Below, piece after piece: positions 13,707 through 20,938 of a DNA stretch of 32,000 nt. A program made the translations under genes and the position numbers. Where the stretch lies: positions 1,730,603 to 1,762,602 of the forward strand of contig NC_001263.1 in NCBI RefSeq assembly GCF_000008565.1. Direction: 5' to 3'. The stretch comes from Deinococcus radiodurans R1 = ATCC 13939 = DSM 20539. Lineage in GTDB: Bacteria > Deinococcota > Deinococci > Deinococcales > Deinococcaceae. Position 1 is the stretch's first letter. Each line of letters starts with the position of its first letter. The notes below the pieces were generated by a model that was given only the letters and a program-made list of their open reading frames with translations, was not told the origin of the DNA and did not search any database.

Positions 13707-16427
<2,721 letters not shown>

Positions 16428-16453
16428 GCGTAGACTTCAAGAAATAGAGCAGT

Positions 16454-16491
16454 AACAAGCCCCCGCCTGGGAAACTGGGCGGGGGCTTGTT
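16454..16491. terminator. Hairpin H1: terminator shared by acnA (+) and the AT-rich gene (-)
   Basis: A 14-bp perfect stem, AACAAGCCCCCGCC (16454-16467) / GGCGGGGGCTTGTT (16478-16491), encloses a 10-nt loop and is followed by ATTTATT. The stem core is identical to H2 and H3. Confidence 0.75.
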
Positions 16492-16493
16492 AT

Positions 16494-17498
16494 TTATTGC
16501 CCTGAATCTAATTTATTTAGCGCATTTTTCAGAAGAACAGTTTTTTGATATGCTGAAAATGAATTAAGTCTTGTGCCACTAACTGCGGAGTTATCATATC
16601 TGATAGCCTCAAAAACCTTTCCTATAATATCCCTAATCGGTTTTAGGGTTTCATCTAGACCCATGAGCATCTTGATTATTTCGGCCATCCCATCGTTCCT
16701 GTCTAAATATATCTGCCTATCGCAATTATTGATTATTGTACTCCAGACCGAATATGCTTCAGACGTATCGAACGGAACTATTAAATTATCTATATCCGCT
16801 TTTTCTGGGAAATGCAATTTATCGTAAAGAACGAGTATATGCTTACTATCAATGGGAAATACCATTTTCATTCCCATATTTGGCATGAATCCAATATCTC
16901 TTTTCAAAAGATAATGACTAAGCATAGGATTTTCACTATCAAAAGAGAAAACGACTGGATTATCACTTGTGAAAACAGTTTGCTCGCCCACCATTTCATA
17001 AATTATCCAAAAGCTAGACAAACAAACATTTAGGAATTTAGAGGATGTTTTCTTATCTATAAGGCCATATATTTGTGTCAATTTCTGAAAATCTGGATGC
17101 TGTGAATTTGAGGGGGTTCCTATCCCTGCCCTGAATTTCTCCGTTCTTATGAATTGGAGATACATATACCAAGCTATTGCAGGCTTCGCATTGTCAGGTA
17201 TTACCCTATTTTCTATAATAGCAGAGTCAATTATCTCTAGTGCTGCGTAAAACTTCTCCTCTTCTATCCTCAGAAGATTTTCAAGTCCATGCCTATCAAA
17301 TTCTGCAATACTCTCGTCTATTTCTGAATCATAAAACCCATCTCGCGATGATACTGTTTGGATTGGTACATTAAACGGTTGTTCAATATTTCTATCAACG
17401 ACCCAAATTCTTGCAACTTTTTTATTAGAATTAGGACTTTGAAACCGTCTTAAATAGCCCTGCGGGACATAATGTTGGCGTTTAATTCGCTCGCCCAT
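16494..17498 (-). CDS. DUF4238-like protein (334 aa) encoded in an AT-rich island; candidate single-gene defence protein
   Basis: The ORF is 16494..17504 with a GTG start. I prefer the ATG at 17498, which has TGATAAAAT (an extended -10) 6 nt upstream. The N-terminus has ...KRQHYVPQGYLRRF... and there is an internal ...VFTSDNPVVF..., the motifs I associate with Pfam DUF4238. The GC content is far below the flanks. Confidence 0.7.
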   Translation of the reverse strand: MGERIKRQHYVPQGYLRRFQSPNSNKKVARIWVVDRNIEQPFNVPIQTVSSRDGFYDSEIDESIAEFDRHGLENLLRIEEEKFYAALEIIDSAIIENRVIPDNAKPAIAWYMYLQFIRTEKFRAGIGTPSNSQHPDFQKLTQIYGLIDKKTSSKFLNVCLSSFWIIYEMVGEQTVFTSDNPVVFSFDSENPMLSHYLLKRDIGFMPNMGMKMVFPIDSKHILVLYDKLHFPEKADIDNLIVPFDTSEAYSVWSTIINNCDRQIYLDRNDGMAEIIKMLMGLDETLKPIRDIIGKVFEAIRYDNSAVSGTRLNSFSAYQKTVLLKNALNKLDSGQ

Positions 17499-17504
17499 AT
17501 TCAC

Positions 17505-17510
17505 ATTTTA
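17505..17510 (-). promoter_or_regulatory. Putative -10 (TAAAAT, with an upstream TG) for a leaderless transcript of the DUF4238-like gene
   Basis: The minus strand reads GCTTGATAAAATGTGAATATG, so 6 nt separate the -10 from the ATG. Confidence 0.45.
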
Positions 17511-17518
17511 TCAAGCTC

Positions 17519-17560
17519 AAAGCCCCCGCCTCTACTTCCCAATGGAGTGGGCGGGGGCTT
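17519..17560. terminator. Hairpin H2: terminator of the Uma2 gene and upstream boundary of the AT-rich cassette
   Basis: The stem is AAGCCCCCGCC (17520-17530) / GGCGGGGGCTT (17550-17560) with a 19-nt loop containing an inner CTCC/GGAAG pairing. The minus strand continues CTTTG. Confidence 0.6.
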
Positions 17561-17570
17561 GGTTTAGGGG

Positions 17571-18116
17571 TCAGAGCTGAGTGCCGTCGTAAAAATCTGC
17601 GAGATTGAGTGTGACGGCAGGACAAGGCAAATCGAAGGTTTCCCCCAGCACCTCAAACACCCACTCTTGGCCTTCTCTGCGCCAGATGGCGGCGCTGCGG
17701 CTGCGGCTGTCCACCAGCAGGTAGGCTTGCAGGCTGGGCAGCTCGCGGTAACGCTCGGCCTTATAGTTCTGGTCGGCCATACGGGTGCTTTCGCTCAGGA
17801 CTTCCACAATCAGACACGGCTCAGCTTCGGTGTAATCGTCGTCCTGTCCGCCTGCGCAGCTCACCACGAGGTCGGGGTAGTGATAGCGGGTGGGCGAAAC
17901 CCGGACCTTCATATCGCTCTGGTACACCTGGCACCCCGACTTGCGAGCGGCGGGGTGGAGCAGCACATGGATATTGCTGGTAATGACGTTGTGGGCGCGG
18001 CTGGCTCCGGCCTGGGCGTACAGAAAGCCGTCAATGTAGTCGTGCCGCGTGGGGTTATCCCGCTCTGAACGCAGGTAGTCCTCCACGGAAACTCGTTTGA
18101 AAGCAGGCCCGGTCAT
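17571..18116 (-). CDS. Uma2-family (DUF820) putative restriction-endonuclease-like protein (181 aa)
   Basis: ...RHDYIDGFLYAQAGASRAHNVITSNIHVLL...YHYPDLVVSC...PCLIVEVLSESTRMADQNYKAERYRELPSLQAYLLVD... carries the PD-(D/E)xK-like Uma2 pattern (PD...EVLS.sT...D...K...Y). Confidence 0.8.
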   Translation of the reverse strand: MTGPAFKRVSVEDYLRSERDNPTRHDYIDGFLYAQAGASRAHNVITSNIHVLLHPAARKSGCQVYQSDMKVRVSPTRYHYPDLVVSCAGGQDDDYTEAEPCLIVEVLSESTRMADQNYKAERYRELPSLQAYLLVDSRSRSAAIWRREGQEWVFEVLGETFDLPCPAVTLNLADFYDGTQL

Positions 18117-18122
18117 ACAGGT

Positions 18123-18128
18123 ATTTTA
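18123..18128 (-). promoter_or_regulatory. Putative -10 (TAAAAT) for a leaderless transcript of the Uma2 gene
   Basis: The minus strand reads TCTGCATAAAATACCTGTATG, so 6 nt separate the -10 from the ATG at 18116. Confidence 0.45.
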
Positions 18129-18138
18129 TGCAGACCAA

Positions 18139-18177
18139 AGCCCCCGCCCACTCCACTCAGGAGCGTCGGCGGGGGCT
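18139..18177. terminator. Hairpin H3: terminator of the P450 gene and upstream boundary of the Uma2 cassette
   Basis: The stem is AGCCCCCGCC (18139-18148) / GGCGGGGGCT (18168-18177) with a 19-nt loop containing an inner CTCC/GGAG pairing. It lies 13 nt downstream of the P450 stop codon. Confidence 0.6.
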
Positions 18178-19612: not shown

Positions 19613-20938
19613 TTACGCGCCACGTGGCCGGCTGAGCACTTCAAGGTCGCCGAGAATAGCCGCCGCCGCCTTTTCCCCGCCTTCCAGGGCGCCCTGAATG
19701 CCGCTGAGCGAGTTGGCCTCACTCGCCAGAAAGACGTTCGGCAGCGGCGTCGTGTGGCCGGGGAGGGTGGCGGCGTACCCGGCGGGCTGCGGGAACTGGG
19801 TGTGAGGGATGCGGTCCACCGAGAGCAGGCGGAGCTGCTCCACGCCGCCTCCGTACCAGGGGCGCAGTTCGTCGAGGACCTGAGCACTCAGCGTGGCGTC
19901 GTCCACCTCGGGCACGCCCCAGACCGAGACGATGAGCAGGCCGTGACCAACAGGTACACGGTTGGGGAATTCCTCCTGCAACCAGAAGACCTGATTGAGC
20001 TGTCCGGTCGGCAGGGCGCCCAGTTGCAGCCGCCGCTGACGCTCCAGCGGTTCGGGCGCGGCGTAGTGCAGGTAGGTGCTGCCGAGGCTGCCGCGCGCGA
20101 TGGGCCGGGGAGCGCCGGGCTGCTCACCGACGAGCCGCGCCGCCGTGTTCGGGTCGGTGGCGACGATGACCTGCGCGGCGTGCAGCGTGTCGCCTGCCTC
20201 CGTCTGCACGCTCACGCCGTCCGGCCCGGAATGAATGTCCGTTACCGTCACGCCGAGGGTCACGTCCAGCTCCTGGGCGAGTTGCCGGGGCAGTTCGCTC
20301 ATGCCCGCGCGGGGAATGGACACGTCGCCGGTCAGCAGCATCCTGAAGTAGTAGCGAAACAGCCCGGCGCTCGTTTCCAGCTGGCGGTCGAGCACCAGCC
20401 CGCCGAAAAACGGGGTGAAGAAACGTTCGAGCGAGCGTTCGGAAAAGCCCTGTTCCAGCAGGTACGCGCGGGTGGTCTGGTCGGGGCCGTTCAGGAGTTC
20501 ATGGGCGGGCCGGGCGAGCAGTTCTGCCGCCAGTTTCGCCGCCACGACCCGGTCTTTCACTGTGAGCGCCGCCGCGCTCAGGTCACCGGGCAGCGCCGCC
20601 GGGTCGCGCAGGGGGTCGCCCACCAGTTCGGCCCGTCCGCCTTCCTGCCGCAGCACCGCCGAGGGCTTGAGCCGCACGAGGTCGAGGGCGTCGTAGTCGA
20701 ACTGCCGCCTGGCCGCCGGGTACGCCGTGAACATGCCAATAAAGCCCACGTCGAGCGTGTAGCTGTCCACCTGCTTGCTCCACACGCGCCCCCCCAGGTG
20801 CTGCGAACTCTCCAGCACCCGCACGGTTTTCCCCGCCCGCTGCAACGTGCGGGCGGCGGTCAGGCCCGCGAGTCCGGCCCCCACCACGATGATGTCGGCA
20901 CCCGTGCTCTCGGCGCCCCTGCTTCCGGTGAGTGTCAT
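19613..20938 (-). CDS. NAD(P)/FAD-dependent oxidoreductase of the amine-oxidase / phytoene-desaturase / protoporphyrinogen-oxidase superfamily (441 aa)
   Basis: The N-terminal dinucleotide fold is ADIIVVGAGLAGLTAARTLQRAGKTVRVLESSQHLGGRV. The C-terminus, ...VFLASEANSLSGIQGALEGG..., is typical of this superfamily. Confidence 0.8.
   Translation of the reverse strand: MTLTGSRGAESTGADIIVVGAGLAGLTAARTLQRAGKTVRVLESSQHLGGRVWSKQVDSYTLDVGFIGMFTAYPAARRQFDYDALDLVRLKPSAVLRQEGGRAELVGDPLRDPAALPGDLSAAALTVKDRVVAAKLAAELLARPAHELLNGPDQTTRAYLLEQGFSERSLERFFTPFFGGLVLDRQLETSAGLFRYYFRMLLTGDVSIPRAGMSELPRQLAQELDVTLGVTVTDIHSGPDGVSVQTEAGDTLHAAQVIVATDPNTAARLVGEQPGAPRPIARGSLGSTYLHYAAPEPLERQRRLQLGALPTGQLNQVFWLQEEFPNRVPVGHGLLIVSVWGVPEVDDATLSAQVLDELRPWYGGGVEQLRLLSVDRIPHTQFPQPAGYAATLPGHTTPLPNVFLASEANSLSGIQGALEGGEKAAAAILGDLEVLSRPRGA

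Follow-up and report, generated by a model that had tools for sequence, protein, structure and literature searches.

Three hairpins built on one stem, each placed where one gene gives way to the next, raise the question of whether they delimit mobile gene cassettes or belong to the neighboring genes and stay in place while the DNA between them is exchanged. The stretch of DNA analyzed here, a 32-kb segment of Deinococcus radiodurans chromosome 1 (hereafter, the window), poses this question between acnA and a cytochrome P450 gene, where genes encoding a DUF4238 protein and a Uma2-family protein are separated from each other and from their flanks by hairpins H1, H2, and H3 (Table 1). Our results favor the latter answer. 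Specifically, we read the locus as holding paralogous modules, each a terminator coupled to a leaderless promoter, at a gene-turnover hotspot free of mobile elements, and give this reading a probability of roughly 0.6. The locus is most likely a neat example of a gene-turnover hotspot of a kind already known, rather than a new mobile-element system.

Hairpins, genes, and junctions

All three hairpins are present at the gene boundaries named in the original prediction, with matching coordinates, and the stem AGCCCCCGCC/GGCGGGGGCT is common to them. Each begins 10-26 nt after a stop codon. The 9-mer GCCCCCGCC occurs nine times in the window versus 2.2 copies expected, a number that none of 100 shuffles reached, and the arms of H1-H3 make up six of the nine copies. 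Predicted RNA energies are -33.9 kcal/mol for H3, -28.6 kcal/mol for H2, and, for H1, -38.5 kcal/mol on the plus strand and -30.6 on the minus strand, with z-scores of -3.7, -3.6, -5.5, and -8.1 for energies of -34, -29, -31, and -38 kcal/mol, respectively. Matches in an Rfam scan were all well below family thresholds. The loops of H2 and H3 share the start CACTCCA, as had been proposed, and the inner CTCC/GGAG pairing ascribed to both is clear in H3 (6 bp) but weak in H2. The claim that CTGC is kept at a shared offset in the H1 flank comes down to a 4-nt match, for which the relatives give no support.

Table 1. Features of the acnA-P450 interval (positions within the 32-kb window)
Feature	Position	Strand	Description
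acnA, aconitate hydratase, 906 aa	13707-16427	plus	Pfam Aconitase and Aconitase_C; conserved flank
H1	16453-16492	both strands	15-bp perfect stem TAACAAGCCCCCGCC, 10-nt loop; between acnA stop (16427) and DUF4238 stop (16494)
Segment without homology to L033	16486-17517		blastn breakpoints
Segment without homology to closest relative L170	16492-17545		blastn breakpoints
DUF4238 protein gene, 334 aa	16494-17498	minus	Pfam DUF4238 E = 2e-25; cargo gene
-10 box TAAAAT of DUF4238, putative leaderless promoter	17505-17510	minus	6 nt upstream of ATG
H2	17520-17560	minus	11-bp stem, 19-nt loop, then TTTG; 3' of Uma2, between DUF4238 ATG (17498) and Uma2 stop (17571)
Uma2-family gene, 181 aa	17571-18116	minus	Pfam Uma2 E = 4e-32; P450-proximal
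-10 box TAAAAT of Uma2, putative leaderless promoter	18123-18128	minus	6 nt upstream of ATG
H3	18139-18177	minus	10-bp stem, 19-nt loop with 6-bp inner stem, then TTTGG; 3' of P450, between Uma2 ATG (18116) and P450 stop (18191)
Cytochrome P450 gene	18191-19528	minus	Pfam p450 E = 2e-56; other flank

Read on the minus strand, the H3 junction in front of Uma2 is GGCGGGGGCTTTG-GTCTGC-ATAAAAT-ACCTGT-ATG, and the H2 junction in front of the DUF4238 gene is GGCGGGGGCTTTG-AGCTTG-ATAAAAT-GTGAAT-ATG. The repetition of this 35-nt unit, reported from the start as 26/35 identity, stands as a count but does not extend beyond the motif blocks: the stem arm, the -10 box, and the ATG hold 23 of the 26 matches, and the spacers match at 3 of 12 positions, which is the chance level. 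The DUF4238 -10 box has a TG one base upstream, making it an extended -10, and the Uma2 box reads TAAAGT, TAGAAT, or TAAAAT in relatives (L032, L170/L172, L033). In the window, 13 ORFs that are 100 aa or longer, Uma2 and DUF4238 included, have the layout TAnnnT-N5-7-ATG at their start, and both GGCTAAAATACGCCTATG and GGGTAAAATCAGTCATG are present in locus L035 without any hairpin. Going by these sequences, what repeats in the promoter half of the junction is a leaderless layout generic to Deinococcus. In D. deserti, 60% of mRNAs are leaderless, preceded immediately by a -10 motif and lacking a -35 (2014, PMC4007540). We infer that Uma2 and the DUF4238 gene use the putative leaderless promoters listed in Table 1. 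The -10 boxes follow the H2 and H3 stems within 6 nt and lie 6 nt before the ATG, so that these intergenic regions would be compact modules, each a terminator plus a promoter.

Relatedness of the hairpins and their putative role in termination

Across lineages, the 19-nt loops of H2 and H3 are identical at 14-16 of 19 positions, against a maximum of 13/19 in 20,000 shuffles; when flipped, the H3 loop matches the H2 loops of L170 and L033 at 16 and 14 of the 19 positions, respectively, and blastn also pairs H3 with the L170 H2. Since this identity exceeds the highest value of the null, the sequences identify H2 and H3 as true paralogs, copies of one module, and the duplication initially suspected is genuine.

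Orthologous hairpins have conserved stems and divergent loops. The H2 loop agrees with its L033 ortholog at 12 of 19 positions and the H3 loop with its L032 ortholog at 10 of 19, and the stems of H2/H3 orthologs are invariant or have single mismatches, with nothing further seen. In L170, the 3' arm of H2 has been destroyed and not regenerated (-12 kcal/mol). H3 is kept in L032, L172, and L170 and is absent in L031. H1 and H3 both have their loops in opposite orientations in D. radiodurans and its close relative L170, with the stems unchanged.

Orthologs of H1 adjoin the acnA stop codon in L170 and L033, and, in D. arcticus, the acnA terminator has the stem CCCCCTCC/GGAGGGGG followed by TTTTTT at the place where D. 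radiodurans H1 has CCCCCGCC/GGCGGGGG. The double change between them is compensatory and keeps the stem paired, the pattern expected of a structure under selection as a terminator. Because the D. arcticus ortholog carries both this compensatory change and the T6 tail, we read H1 as the ancestral acnA terminator, bearing the same stem as H2 and H3. Stem identity would be upheld by selection for stable G+C stems, and probably also by short gene conversion; how similar the 17 nt behind the stems are to one another does not decide the question of conversion either way.

Most likely, then, H1-H3 are putative terminators of the Rho-independent type, one per transcription unit. H3 would end the P450 transcript and H2 the Uma2 transcript, while H1, lying between the convergent acnA and DUF4238 genes, would stop transcription both ways. 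Downstream of the stem, H1 has TTGTTATTTATTG on the plus strand, and H2 and H3 have only TTTG(A/G), a 3-T tract; neither H2 nor H3 was called by a simple terminator scan, which asks for 5 T or more and accepts loops of up to 8 nt.

Turnover of the gene between H1 and H2

The slot between H1 and H2, next to acnA, holds four different cargos among D. radiodurans, L170, L033, and L040. The D. radiodurans cargo, the DUF4238 gene, is foreign by composition, given its GC content of 36% versus about 65%, which agrees with its proposed status as an incoming gene. In its place, L170 has an NB-ARC/TPR gene of 38% GC, even though its Uma2 is 98% identical to that of D. radiodurans and its acnA flank matches at 97% of nucleotides. 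L033 has a gene for a SEC-C-motif protein (326 aa, 47% GC) in the opposite orientation, and the cargo in D. arcticus is a 92-aa ORF. Hence, the expectation of strain-variable content between the hairpins was borne out: the H1-H2 interval differs in close relatives, and the hairpins stay put. The companion proposal, that each incoming gene has its own leaderless promoter, likewise agrees with the sequences, as each cargo gene, in D. radiodurans and in relatives, shows a -10/N6/ATG candidate leaderless start. The gene downstream of P450 also differs among relatives. The cargos may be defense-related. Uma2 is a PADLOC candidate (PDC-S03, E = 3e-21); PADLOC gave no match for the 92-aa ORF, the SEC-C protein, or DUF4238, and describing the slot as a defense island is for this reason only suggestive.

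The ends of the exchanged segments coincide with the hairpins (Table 1). Relative to L170, the breakpoint falls within the loop or the 3' arm of H2; relative to L033, it coincides with the end of the 3' arm of H2, and the sequence beyond may hold remnants of the promoter module; and on the H1 side, breakpoints fall at the outer edge of the stem, 0 to 6 nt into it or beside it. All breakpoints thus lie in a hairpin or no more than about 6 nt from a hairpin stem, a closer coincidence than a purely passive model would call for. Identity to L170 is unequal in the two flanks (92.5% versus 97.0%), a difference that is compatible with a mosaic history and does not constitute a recombination test.

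No remnants of an older cargo common to the alleles were found. The exact AcnA protein is present in D. radiodurans assemblies, and the contigs encoding it all carry DUF4238, with or without an IS, such that no empty slot was seen among them; the IS630-family element seen in assemblies of the R1 lineage entered the DUF4238 cargo gene later. The original prediction had counted against itself the finding of one three-hairpin layout in all relatives with no empty sites, and half of that picture emerged, in that the hairpins are kept and no empty-slot allele was found, with the content between them varying as described. No recombinase or transposase Pfam domains were detected in the window ORFs scanned. 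A genome-collection search based on P450 yielded only two distant species, D. yunweiensis and D. xinjiangensis, which had neither synteny nor a Uma2 gene or hairpin after P450 and hence carried no information on empty sites.

D. radiodurans is a naturally transformable bacterium. In the history that we favor, the DNA between H2 and H1 would have been replaced repeatedly by low-GC foreign genes, most likely in two steps, with an illegitimate insertion creating a new allele that would then spread by homologous recombination in the conserved flanking genes. The hairpins would mark the borders because they belong to those conserved flanking genes and are retained with them, the DNA beyond being free to vary.

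Alternative readings and known systems

The hairpins could themselves be recombination substrates, acting through annealing of arm microhomology or cruciform breakage and host repair, with no dedicated recombinase, such that single genes would be inserted, excised (H1 x H2), or inverted in an integron-like logic. This would make use of the 10-11-bp G+C-rich arms that H1-H3 share in both orientations and would account for the L170 and L033 breakpoints lying within H1 and H2 or at their edges, for three unrelated single-gene cargos (one inverted) filling the exact hairpin-to-hairpin interval, and for the loop inversion of H1 and H3 between close relatives, taken as showing that the arms recombine or template-switch. 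Further, 3 of the 120 loci listed with the stem, all on unrelated metagenome contigs, have a second copy, and two of these pairs flank one small gene. We nevertheless consider it unlikely. The breakpoint position varies from the loop or 3' arm (L170) to the 3'-arm end (L033) and the outer edge (H1), the lost arm of the L170 H2 was not regenerated, the AcnA-matching contigs include no empty site marked by one hybrid hairpin, and selection keeping the flanking terminators yields the same picture. Homologs of the cargos also occur elsewhere without these hairpins, both for DUF4238 (loci L166-L169) and for Uma2 (82% identical at the nuo locus, L035-L039); therefore, the genes do not travel with the hairpins. 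Along with the shifting breakpoints and the lack of a recombinase among the window ORFs scanned, this speaks against the attC-like or hairpin-targeting cassette mechanism proposed at the outset. DUF4238 was also considered as half of a two-gene system and rejected; its upstream neighbor in L168 and L169 is dnaE. Deinococcus annealing and repair machinery is unusually active, and a bolder variant, which we hold to be decidedly unlikely, has it use same-stem terminator hairpins as recombinase-free docking sites for single-gene cassettes. Arm microhomology or cruciform breakage would swap the gene between the hairpins, with loop flips as a by-product, and the newcomer, insulated by terminators on both sides, would supply or inherit a leaderless promoter.

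Two other readings concern the origin of the shared stem. Copies of a dispersed REP/MITE-like palindromic family, propagated by a RAYT or IS200/IS605-type enzyme whose gene lies elsewhere, would have identical stems, related H2/H3 loops, and an intergenic location, and D. radiodurans does encode IS200/IS605 elements and have small noncoding repeats. REPs, however, number tens to hundreds of copies per genome, and the search revealed no further same-stem hairpin in 255 kb of D. radiodurans DNA (the 32-kb window plus 223 kb of plasmids pMP1 and pSP1 from R1 dM1) or, orthologous sites excepted, in approximately 100 kb from other Deinococcus loci. None of the 120 listed metagenome hairpins with the stem has a related loop, and H1 has its ortholog in the acnA terminator of D. 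arcticus, compensatory change included, all of which makes a repeat family very unlikely. The H3 region gave only chance Haloferax matches in a BLAST search against plasmids. The poorest prospects fall to independent convergence, in which GCCCCCGCC would be a favored terminator stem in G+C-rich bacteria and be shared by chance. C-run/G-run stems are indeed common in the sampled Deinococcus DNA, and GCCCCCGCC-N8-22-GGCGGGGGCTT occurs in at least 120 metagenome loci with 47 to 75% GC and unrelated loops. Yet the H2/H3 loop homology is far beyond chance, a second same-stem hairpin is found in only the three listed loci already mentioned, and all other hairpins found in the 255 kb of D. radiodurans DNA leave this stem unused. 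Convergence is thus highly improbable, and the loop statistics have already largely refuted it. The related worry that the stem might simply be the commonest terminator, unlinked to variable genes, does not hold in the DNA sampled (window and plasmids).

Taken as a turnover hotspot with terminator-promoter modules, the locus offers a small, well-resolved example of a transformable, G+C-rich bacterium swapping single accessory genes without mobile-element machinery. A terminator fused to a leaderless promoter would allow a new arrival to be expressed and insulated at once, and the H1-H2 slot looks naturally permissive and insulated as an insertion site in D. radiodurans. Terminator palindromes emerge as genetically active sites, because the breakpoints coincide with hairpins and loops are inverted between close relatives. 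If the hairpins were in fact to direct integration, this would be a new recombinase-free cassette mechanism.

Set beside known systems, H1-H3 resemble intrinsic terminators as stable G+C-rich stem-loops (stems of 10-15 bp) directly 3' of stop codons, with structure conserved over sequence in the case of H1, and H1 further resembles bidirectional intrinsic terminators in serving convergent genes with T-rich tails on both strands; H2 and H3 depart from them in their long loops (19 nt) and only 3 T after the stem. The TAAAAT-N6-ATG starts of Uma2 and DUF4238, with a TAnnnT 5-7 nt before the start and neither a Shine-Dalgarno sequence nor a -35 box, are like the D. deserti leaderless promoters (PMC4007540) but unlike plain ones in that the -10 lies only 6 nt (plus TTTG) past a terminator stem, in one compact module. 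Loop flip-flop inversions between inverted-repeat arms are well documented in plastid genomes (e.g., PMC6342102), and the reversal of the H1 and H3 loops relative to L170 on unchanged stems is of this kind, except that it concerns bacterial terminator hairpins, where we infer arm recombination or template switching. The hairpins resemble REP/BIME elements as short palindromes, extragenic and rich in G+C, that sit at gene ends and may terminate or stabilize mRNA, but they differ in having no extra copy in the D. radiodurans DNA sampled and no RAYT gene nearby.

The likeness to integron attC cassettes consists of single-gene units split by imperfect palindromes whose ends are conserved and whose centers vary, and of cargo that differs among strains. 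The differences are that no IntI, attI, or Pc accompanies the array (no integrase was found in the 32-kb window), that the R/L box structure and GTTRRRY core are absent, that the hairpins are not mobile with the genes (L166-L169, L035-L039), and that the breakpoints are not fixed and the genes have their own promoters, in contrast to a fixed crossover and promoterless cassettes. For the slot itself, the counterparts are mobile-element-free hotspots, in which turnover proceeds by recombination at flanking core genes, especially in transformable species (Oliveira et al. 2017, PMC5635113), and core defense hotspots (Johnson et al. 2023, PMC10250203). Compared with these, the slot is tiny (a single gene) and has same-stem hairpins on both sides, and, relative to the core defense hotspots, only Uma2 matches a candidate defense family. 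It is like them in its conserved acnA and Uma2/P450 flanks, in the differing low-GC accessory genes that occupy one slot in relatives, in window ORFs that, as scanned, include no integrase, transposase, or prophage genes behind the turnover, and in its naturally transformable host.

Hairpins, stem and junctions

The common stem proposed for the three intergenic stem-loops between acnA and the P450 gene, AGCCCCCGCC/GGCGGGGGCT, was confirmed in H1, H2 and H3. Its 9-mer occurs nine times in the window against 2.2 expected, a count that none of 100 shuffles reached, and six of the nine copies are arms of these hairpins, whose predicted folding energies range from -29 to -38 kcal/mol (z-scores -3.6 to -8.1). 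The window belongs to chromosome 1 of D. radiodurans: exact Uma2 and AcnA proteins are present on D. radiodurans contigs, including CP031500 and CP150840, and NCBI assigns the P450 to D. radiodurans.

Genes and hairpins of the acnA-P450 interval, in window coordinates
Feature	Position	Strand
acnA	13707-16427	+
H1	16453-16492	both strands
DUF4238 gene	16494-17498	-
H2	17520-17560	-
Uma2	17571-18116	-
H3	18139-18177	-
P450	18191-19528	-
Amine-oxidase-type gene	19613-20938	-

Across bacteria, this is a generic terminator-type stem: the pattern GCCCCCGCC-N8-22-GGCGGGGGCTT matched at least 120 metagenome loci (47 to 75% GC), and among the matches listed loops span 5-22 nt, 3 of 120 loci have a second same-stem hairpin, and none of the 120 has a loop related to H2 or H3. 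Within Deinococcus, cataloguing perfect G+C-rich hairpins gave no further same-stem copy in the remainder of the 32-kb window, none in 223 kb of the D. radiodurans plasmids pMP1 (CP031502, strain R1 dM1, same assembly as CP031500) and pSP1, and none in ~100 kb from other Deinococcus loci, orthologous sites excepted. RNIE predicts 283-506 intrinsic terminators on D. radiodurans chromosome 1 (PMC3152330), and the sampled DNA should therefore include dozens of terminators. The stem is not common in this sample, and a REP-like repeat family behind the hairpins is unlikely. Unrelated metagenome contigs carry GCCCCCGCC-stem hairpins in pairs (L122 929-1880, L131 2224-2720, L161 940-1100), two of these three pairs lying on either side of a single small gene; the L122 gene is low in GC, with a weak ToxN-like match (E = 8e-4, below cutoff) and repeats upstream, and the 129-aa ORF of L131 has no Pfam match.

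The original prediction also described a repeated hairpin-promoter-ATG junction, of which the likeness is real and the promoter half proved generic. The two minus-strand junctions (H3-Uma2 and H2-DUF4238) are indeed 26/35 identical, with 23 of the 26 matches within the stem arm plus TTTG, the ATAAAAT box and the ATG, while the spacers match at 3 of 12 positions, which is chance level. The exact TAAAAT-N6-ATG occurs in the window only at the Uma2 and DUF4238 genes; the looser TAnnnT-N5-7-ATG precedes 13 window ORFs of at least 100 aa, these two included. Hairpin-free instances of the leaderless layout occur in the compared locus L035 (GGCTAAAATACGCCTATG and GGGTAAAATCAGTCATG) and at a TACACT-N6-ATG start in D. 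arcticus, and leaderless transcripts account for 60% of D. deserti mRNAs, with a -10 motif immediately 5' of the start and no -35 (PMC4007540). Because the layout is generic in the window, in relatives and in D. deserti, the ATAAAAT-N6-ATG block calls for no special cause.

Ancestry of the hairpins

That H2 and H3 are paralogs, as had been proposed, is borne out by loop identities of 14-16/19 in relatives, and judged from these sequences we consider the question settled. In gene-sense orientation, the H3 loops are GACGCTCCTGAGTGGAGTG (D. radiodurans), GGCGCTCCTGTGTGGAGTG (L172) and CACTTCACATAGGAGCATC (L170), and the H2 loops are CACTCCATTGGGAAGTAGA (D. radiodurans), CACTACGCACAGGAGCGTC (L170) and CAGCCCACTGGGGAGCATC (L033). 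Against the flipped D. radiodurans H3 loop, the H2 loops of L170 and L033 are identical at 16/19 and 14/19 positions, respectively, and within L170 the H2 and H3 loops agree at 15/19 in the same orientation, versus a null maximum of 13/19 (20,000 shuffles, better of two orientations); blastn independently found the same pairings. Over its full length the H2 loop of D. radiodurans agrees with that of L033 at 12/19 positions, and the D. radiodurans H2 is therefore resident rather than hybrid. Tandem Uma2 paralogs with near-identical CTACACTGTNCCCATGAC starts lie beside acnA in D. arcticus (L040 9369-10546), and on the short contig L173 (683-2410) three Uma2 paralogs are arrayed in much the same way, with an HNH gene after them; such arrays suggest unit duplication as one possible source of the H2/H3 paralogy.

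H1 is the old putative acnA terminator. In both L170 and L033 its ortholog adjoins the acnA stop and has an almost unchanged 10-nt loop, and D. arcticus has at this site CCCCCTCC-CATTGC-GGAGGGGG, then T6 on the acnA strand, with a stem that differs from CCCCCGCC/GGCGGGGG by a double, compensatory substitution.

Loops have also been inverted. For H1, D. radiodurans has the loop CAGTTTCCCA where L170, read in the same orientation, has TGGGCAACTG, and the H3 loop occurs in L170 and L171 as the reverse complement of its D. radiodurans and L172 form (15/19 flipped versus 5-7/19 direct across those lineages). The stems are unchanged around the inverted loops (window 16463-16482 and 18149-18167; L170 3951-3975 and 950-988). 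The hairpin arms therefore recombine or template-switch, and loop orientation is unusable for inferring history. Loop inversion between inverted-repeat arms is well known from plastid genomes (PMC6342102), whose flip-flop loops resemble the H1 and H3 loops inverted between D. radiodurans and L170.

A variable slot and its cargo

Gene content between the hairpins varies, as predicted. The slot between H1 and H2 holds in D. radiodurans the DUF4238 gene (36% GC versus 61-69% in its neighbours), and in L170, L171 and L172 a 768-aa NB-ARC/TPR gene of STAND type (38% GC; the STAND NTPase gene at L170 1635-3941), in a group whose Uma2 is 98% identical to that of D. radiodurans and whose acnA and P450/Uma2 flanks are 97.0% and 92.5% identical in nucleotides. 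L033 and L034 (Uma2 88% identical, acnA 89% identical in nucleotides) carry in opposite orientation a gene (47% GC) for a 326-aa protein in which a SEC-C motif is weakly matched, starting against H1 as GGCGGGGG-TAAAAT-CTCCAC-ATG, and D. arcticus (L040), where Uma2 identity is 72%, has two tandem Uma2 paralogs, then a 92-aa ORF, then acnA. After P450, L032 retains H3 and the Uma2 start, whereas L031, with an equally similar P450 (84% identical), lacks a hairpin there and is followed by a Uma2 paralog of just 43% identity; variation therefore extends to the P450-proximal position. In L031, 25 nt with TACAAT-N6-ATG separate the two genes (1375-1400). No hairpin and no Uma2 follow P450 in D. yunweiensis or D. 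xinjiangensis. The anticipated empty alleles with a single hairpin were not found among contigs with the exact AcnA protein, every one of which is D. radiodurans with DUF4238.

Breakpoints sit tight on the hairpins, yet not at one fixed position. Homology (blastn) to L170 stops at window 17546, inside the H2 loop, and restarts at 16491, the outer H1 edge; that to L033 stops at 17518 and restarts at 16485. The 3' arm of L170 H2 is degenerate (AGCGTAGGCC, -12 kcal/mol), the L170 cargo carries its own TATAAT-N6-ATG, and in L033 the ~13 nt that follow the H2 stem (TTTGGCGTAAGGT) look like the sequence flanking the L033 H3.

DUF4238 homologs at L166-L169 (43-59% identical; 39-41% GC within 57-67% GC DNA) have no shared-stem hairpin, and an 82% identical Uma2 adjoins a nuo operon without hairpins; the hairpins therefore do not accompany the genes. 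In L168 and L169 the DUF4238 gene begins 3 nt past the dnaE stop (L168 3-1793, 1796-2815), and low GC is maintained in diverged copies at different loci. Two antisense sigma-70-like promoter matches in the DUF4238 gene (17191-17219, 11/12; 16600-16628, 10/12; + strand) are probably by-products of its low GC. R1-lineage assemblies (CP150840, CP031500, CP094462, CP050120, JMLF01) carry an IS630-family (DDE_3) element, absent from the window, ~8 codons past the start of this gene (window about 17470-17480, minus strand, after GGCGAGCGAATTA; L001-L005 10646-11654, L175-L176 9824-10832); the gene is intact in the window and in metagenome contigs L006, L008-L010, L177-L179 and L182-L183. The locus is only weakly linked to defence. 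In PADLOC, Uma2 hits the candidate PDC-S03 (E = 3e-21), the hits of the NB-ARC/TPR protein are all weak (first ~120 residues to the candidate PDC-M34B, E = 9e-7), and the DUF4238 protein has none.

Gene turnover between conserved genes

The best-supported reading takes the hairpins for parts of paralogous modules, each a putative terminator with a leaderless promoter, at a hotspot of gene turnover that has no mobile-element genes. Termination at the hairpins, use of the promoters and the route of recombination are our inferences. The hotspot would be situated between conserved genes, and hairpins would mark cargo borders because they are part of the conserved flanking transcription units. Selection for stability would keep the stems identical, and short gene conversion probably does so as well; the H2 of L170 resembles H3 more than it does the remaining H2 copies.

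The attC-like cassette logic to which the original prediction loosely likened the arrangement fails three tested defining features: homologs of the genes at other loci are hairpin-free, breakpoints are not fixed, and the window ORFs scanned hold, as had been noted, no recombinase or transposase domain. Recombinase-free gene exchange mediated by the hairpins themselves, which both the breakpoints tight against them and the H1 and H3 loop inversions suggest, is rather improbable.

Such turnover of genes has counterparts elsewhere. D. radiodurans is naturally transformable. Hotspots without mobile-element genes between conserved genes have been described in transformable bacteria (PMC5635113), core defence hotspots also lie between conserved genes (PMC10250203), and the present locus resembles both in its slot between conserved genes without mobile-element genes.
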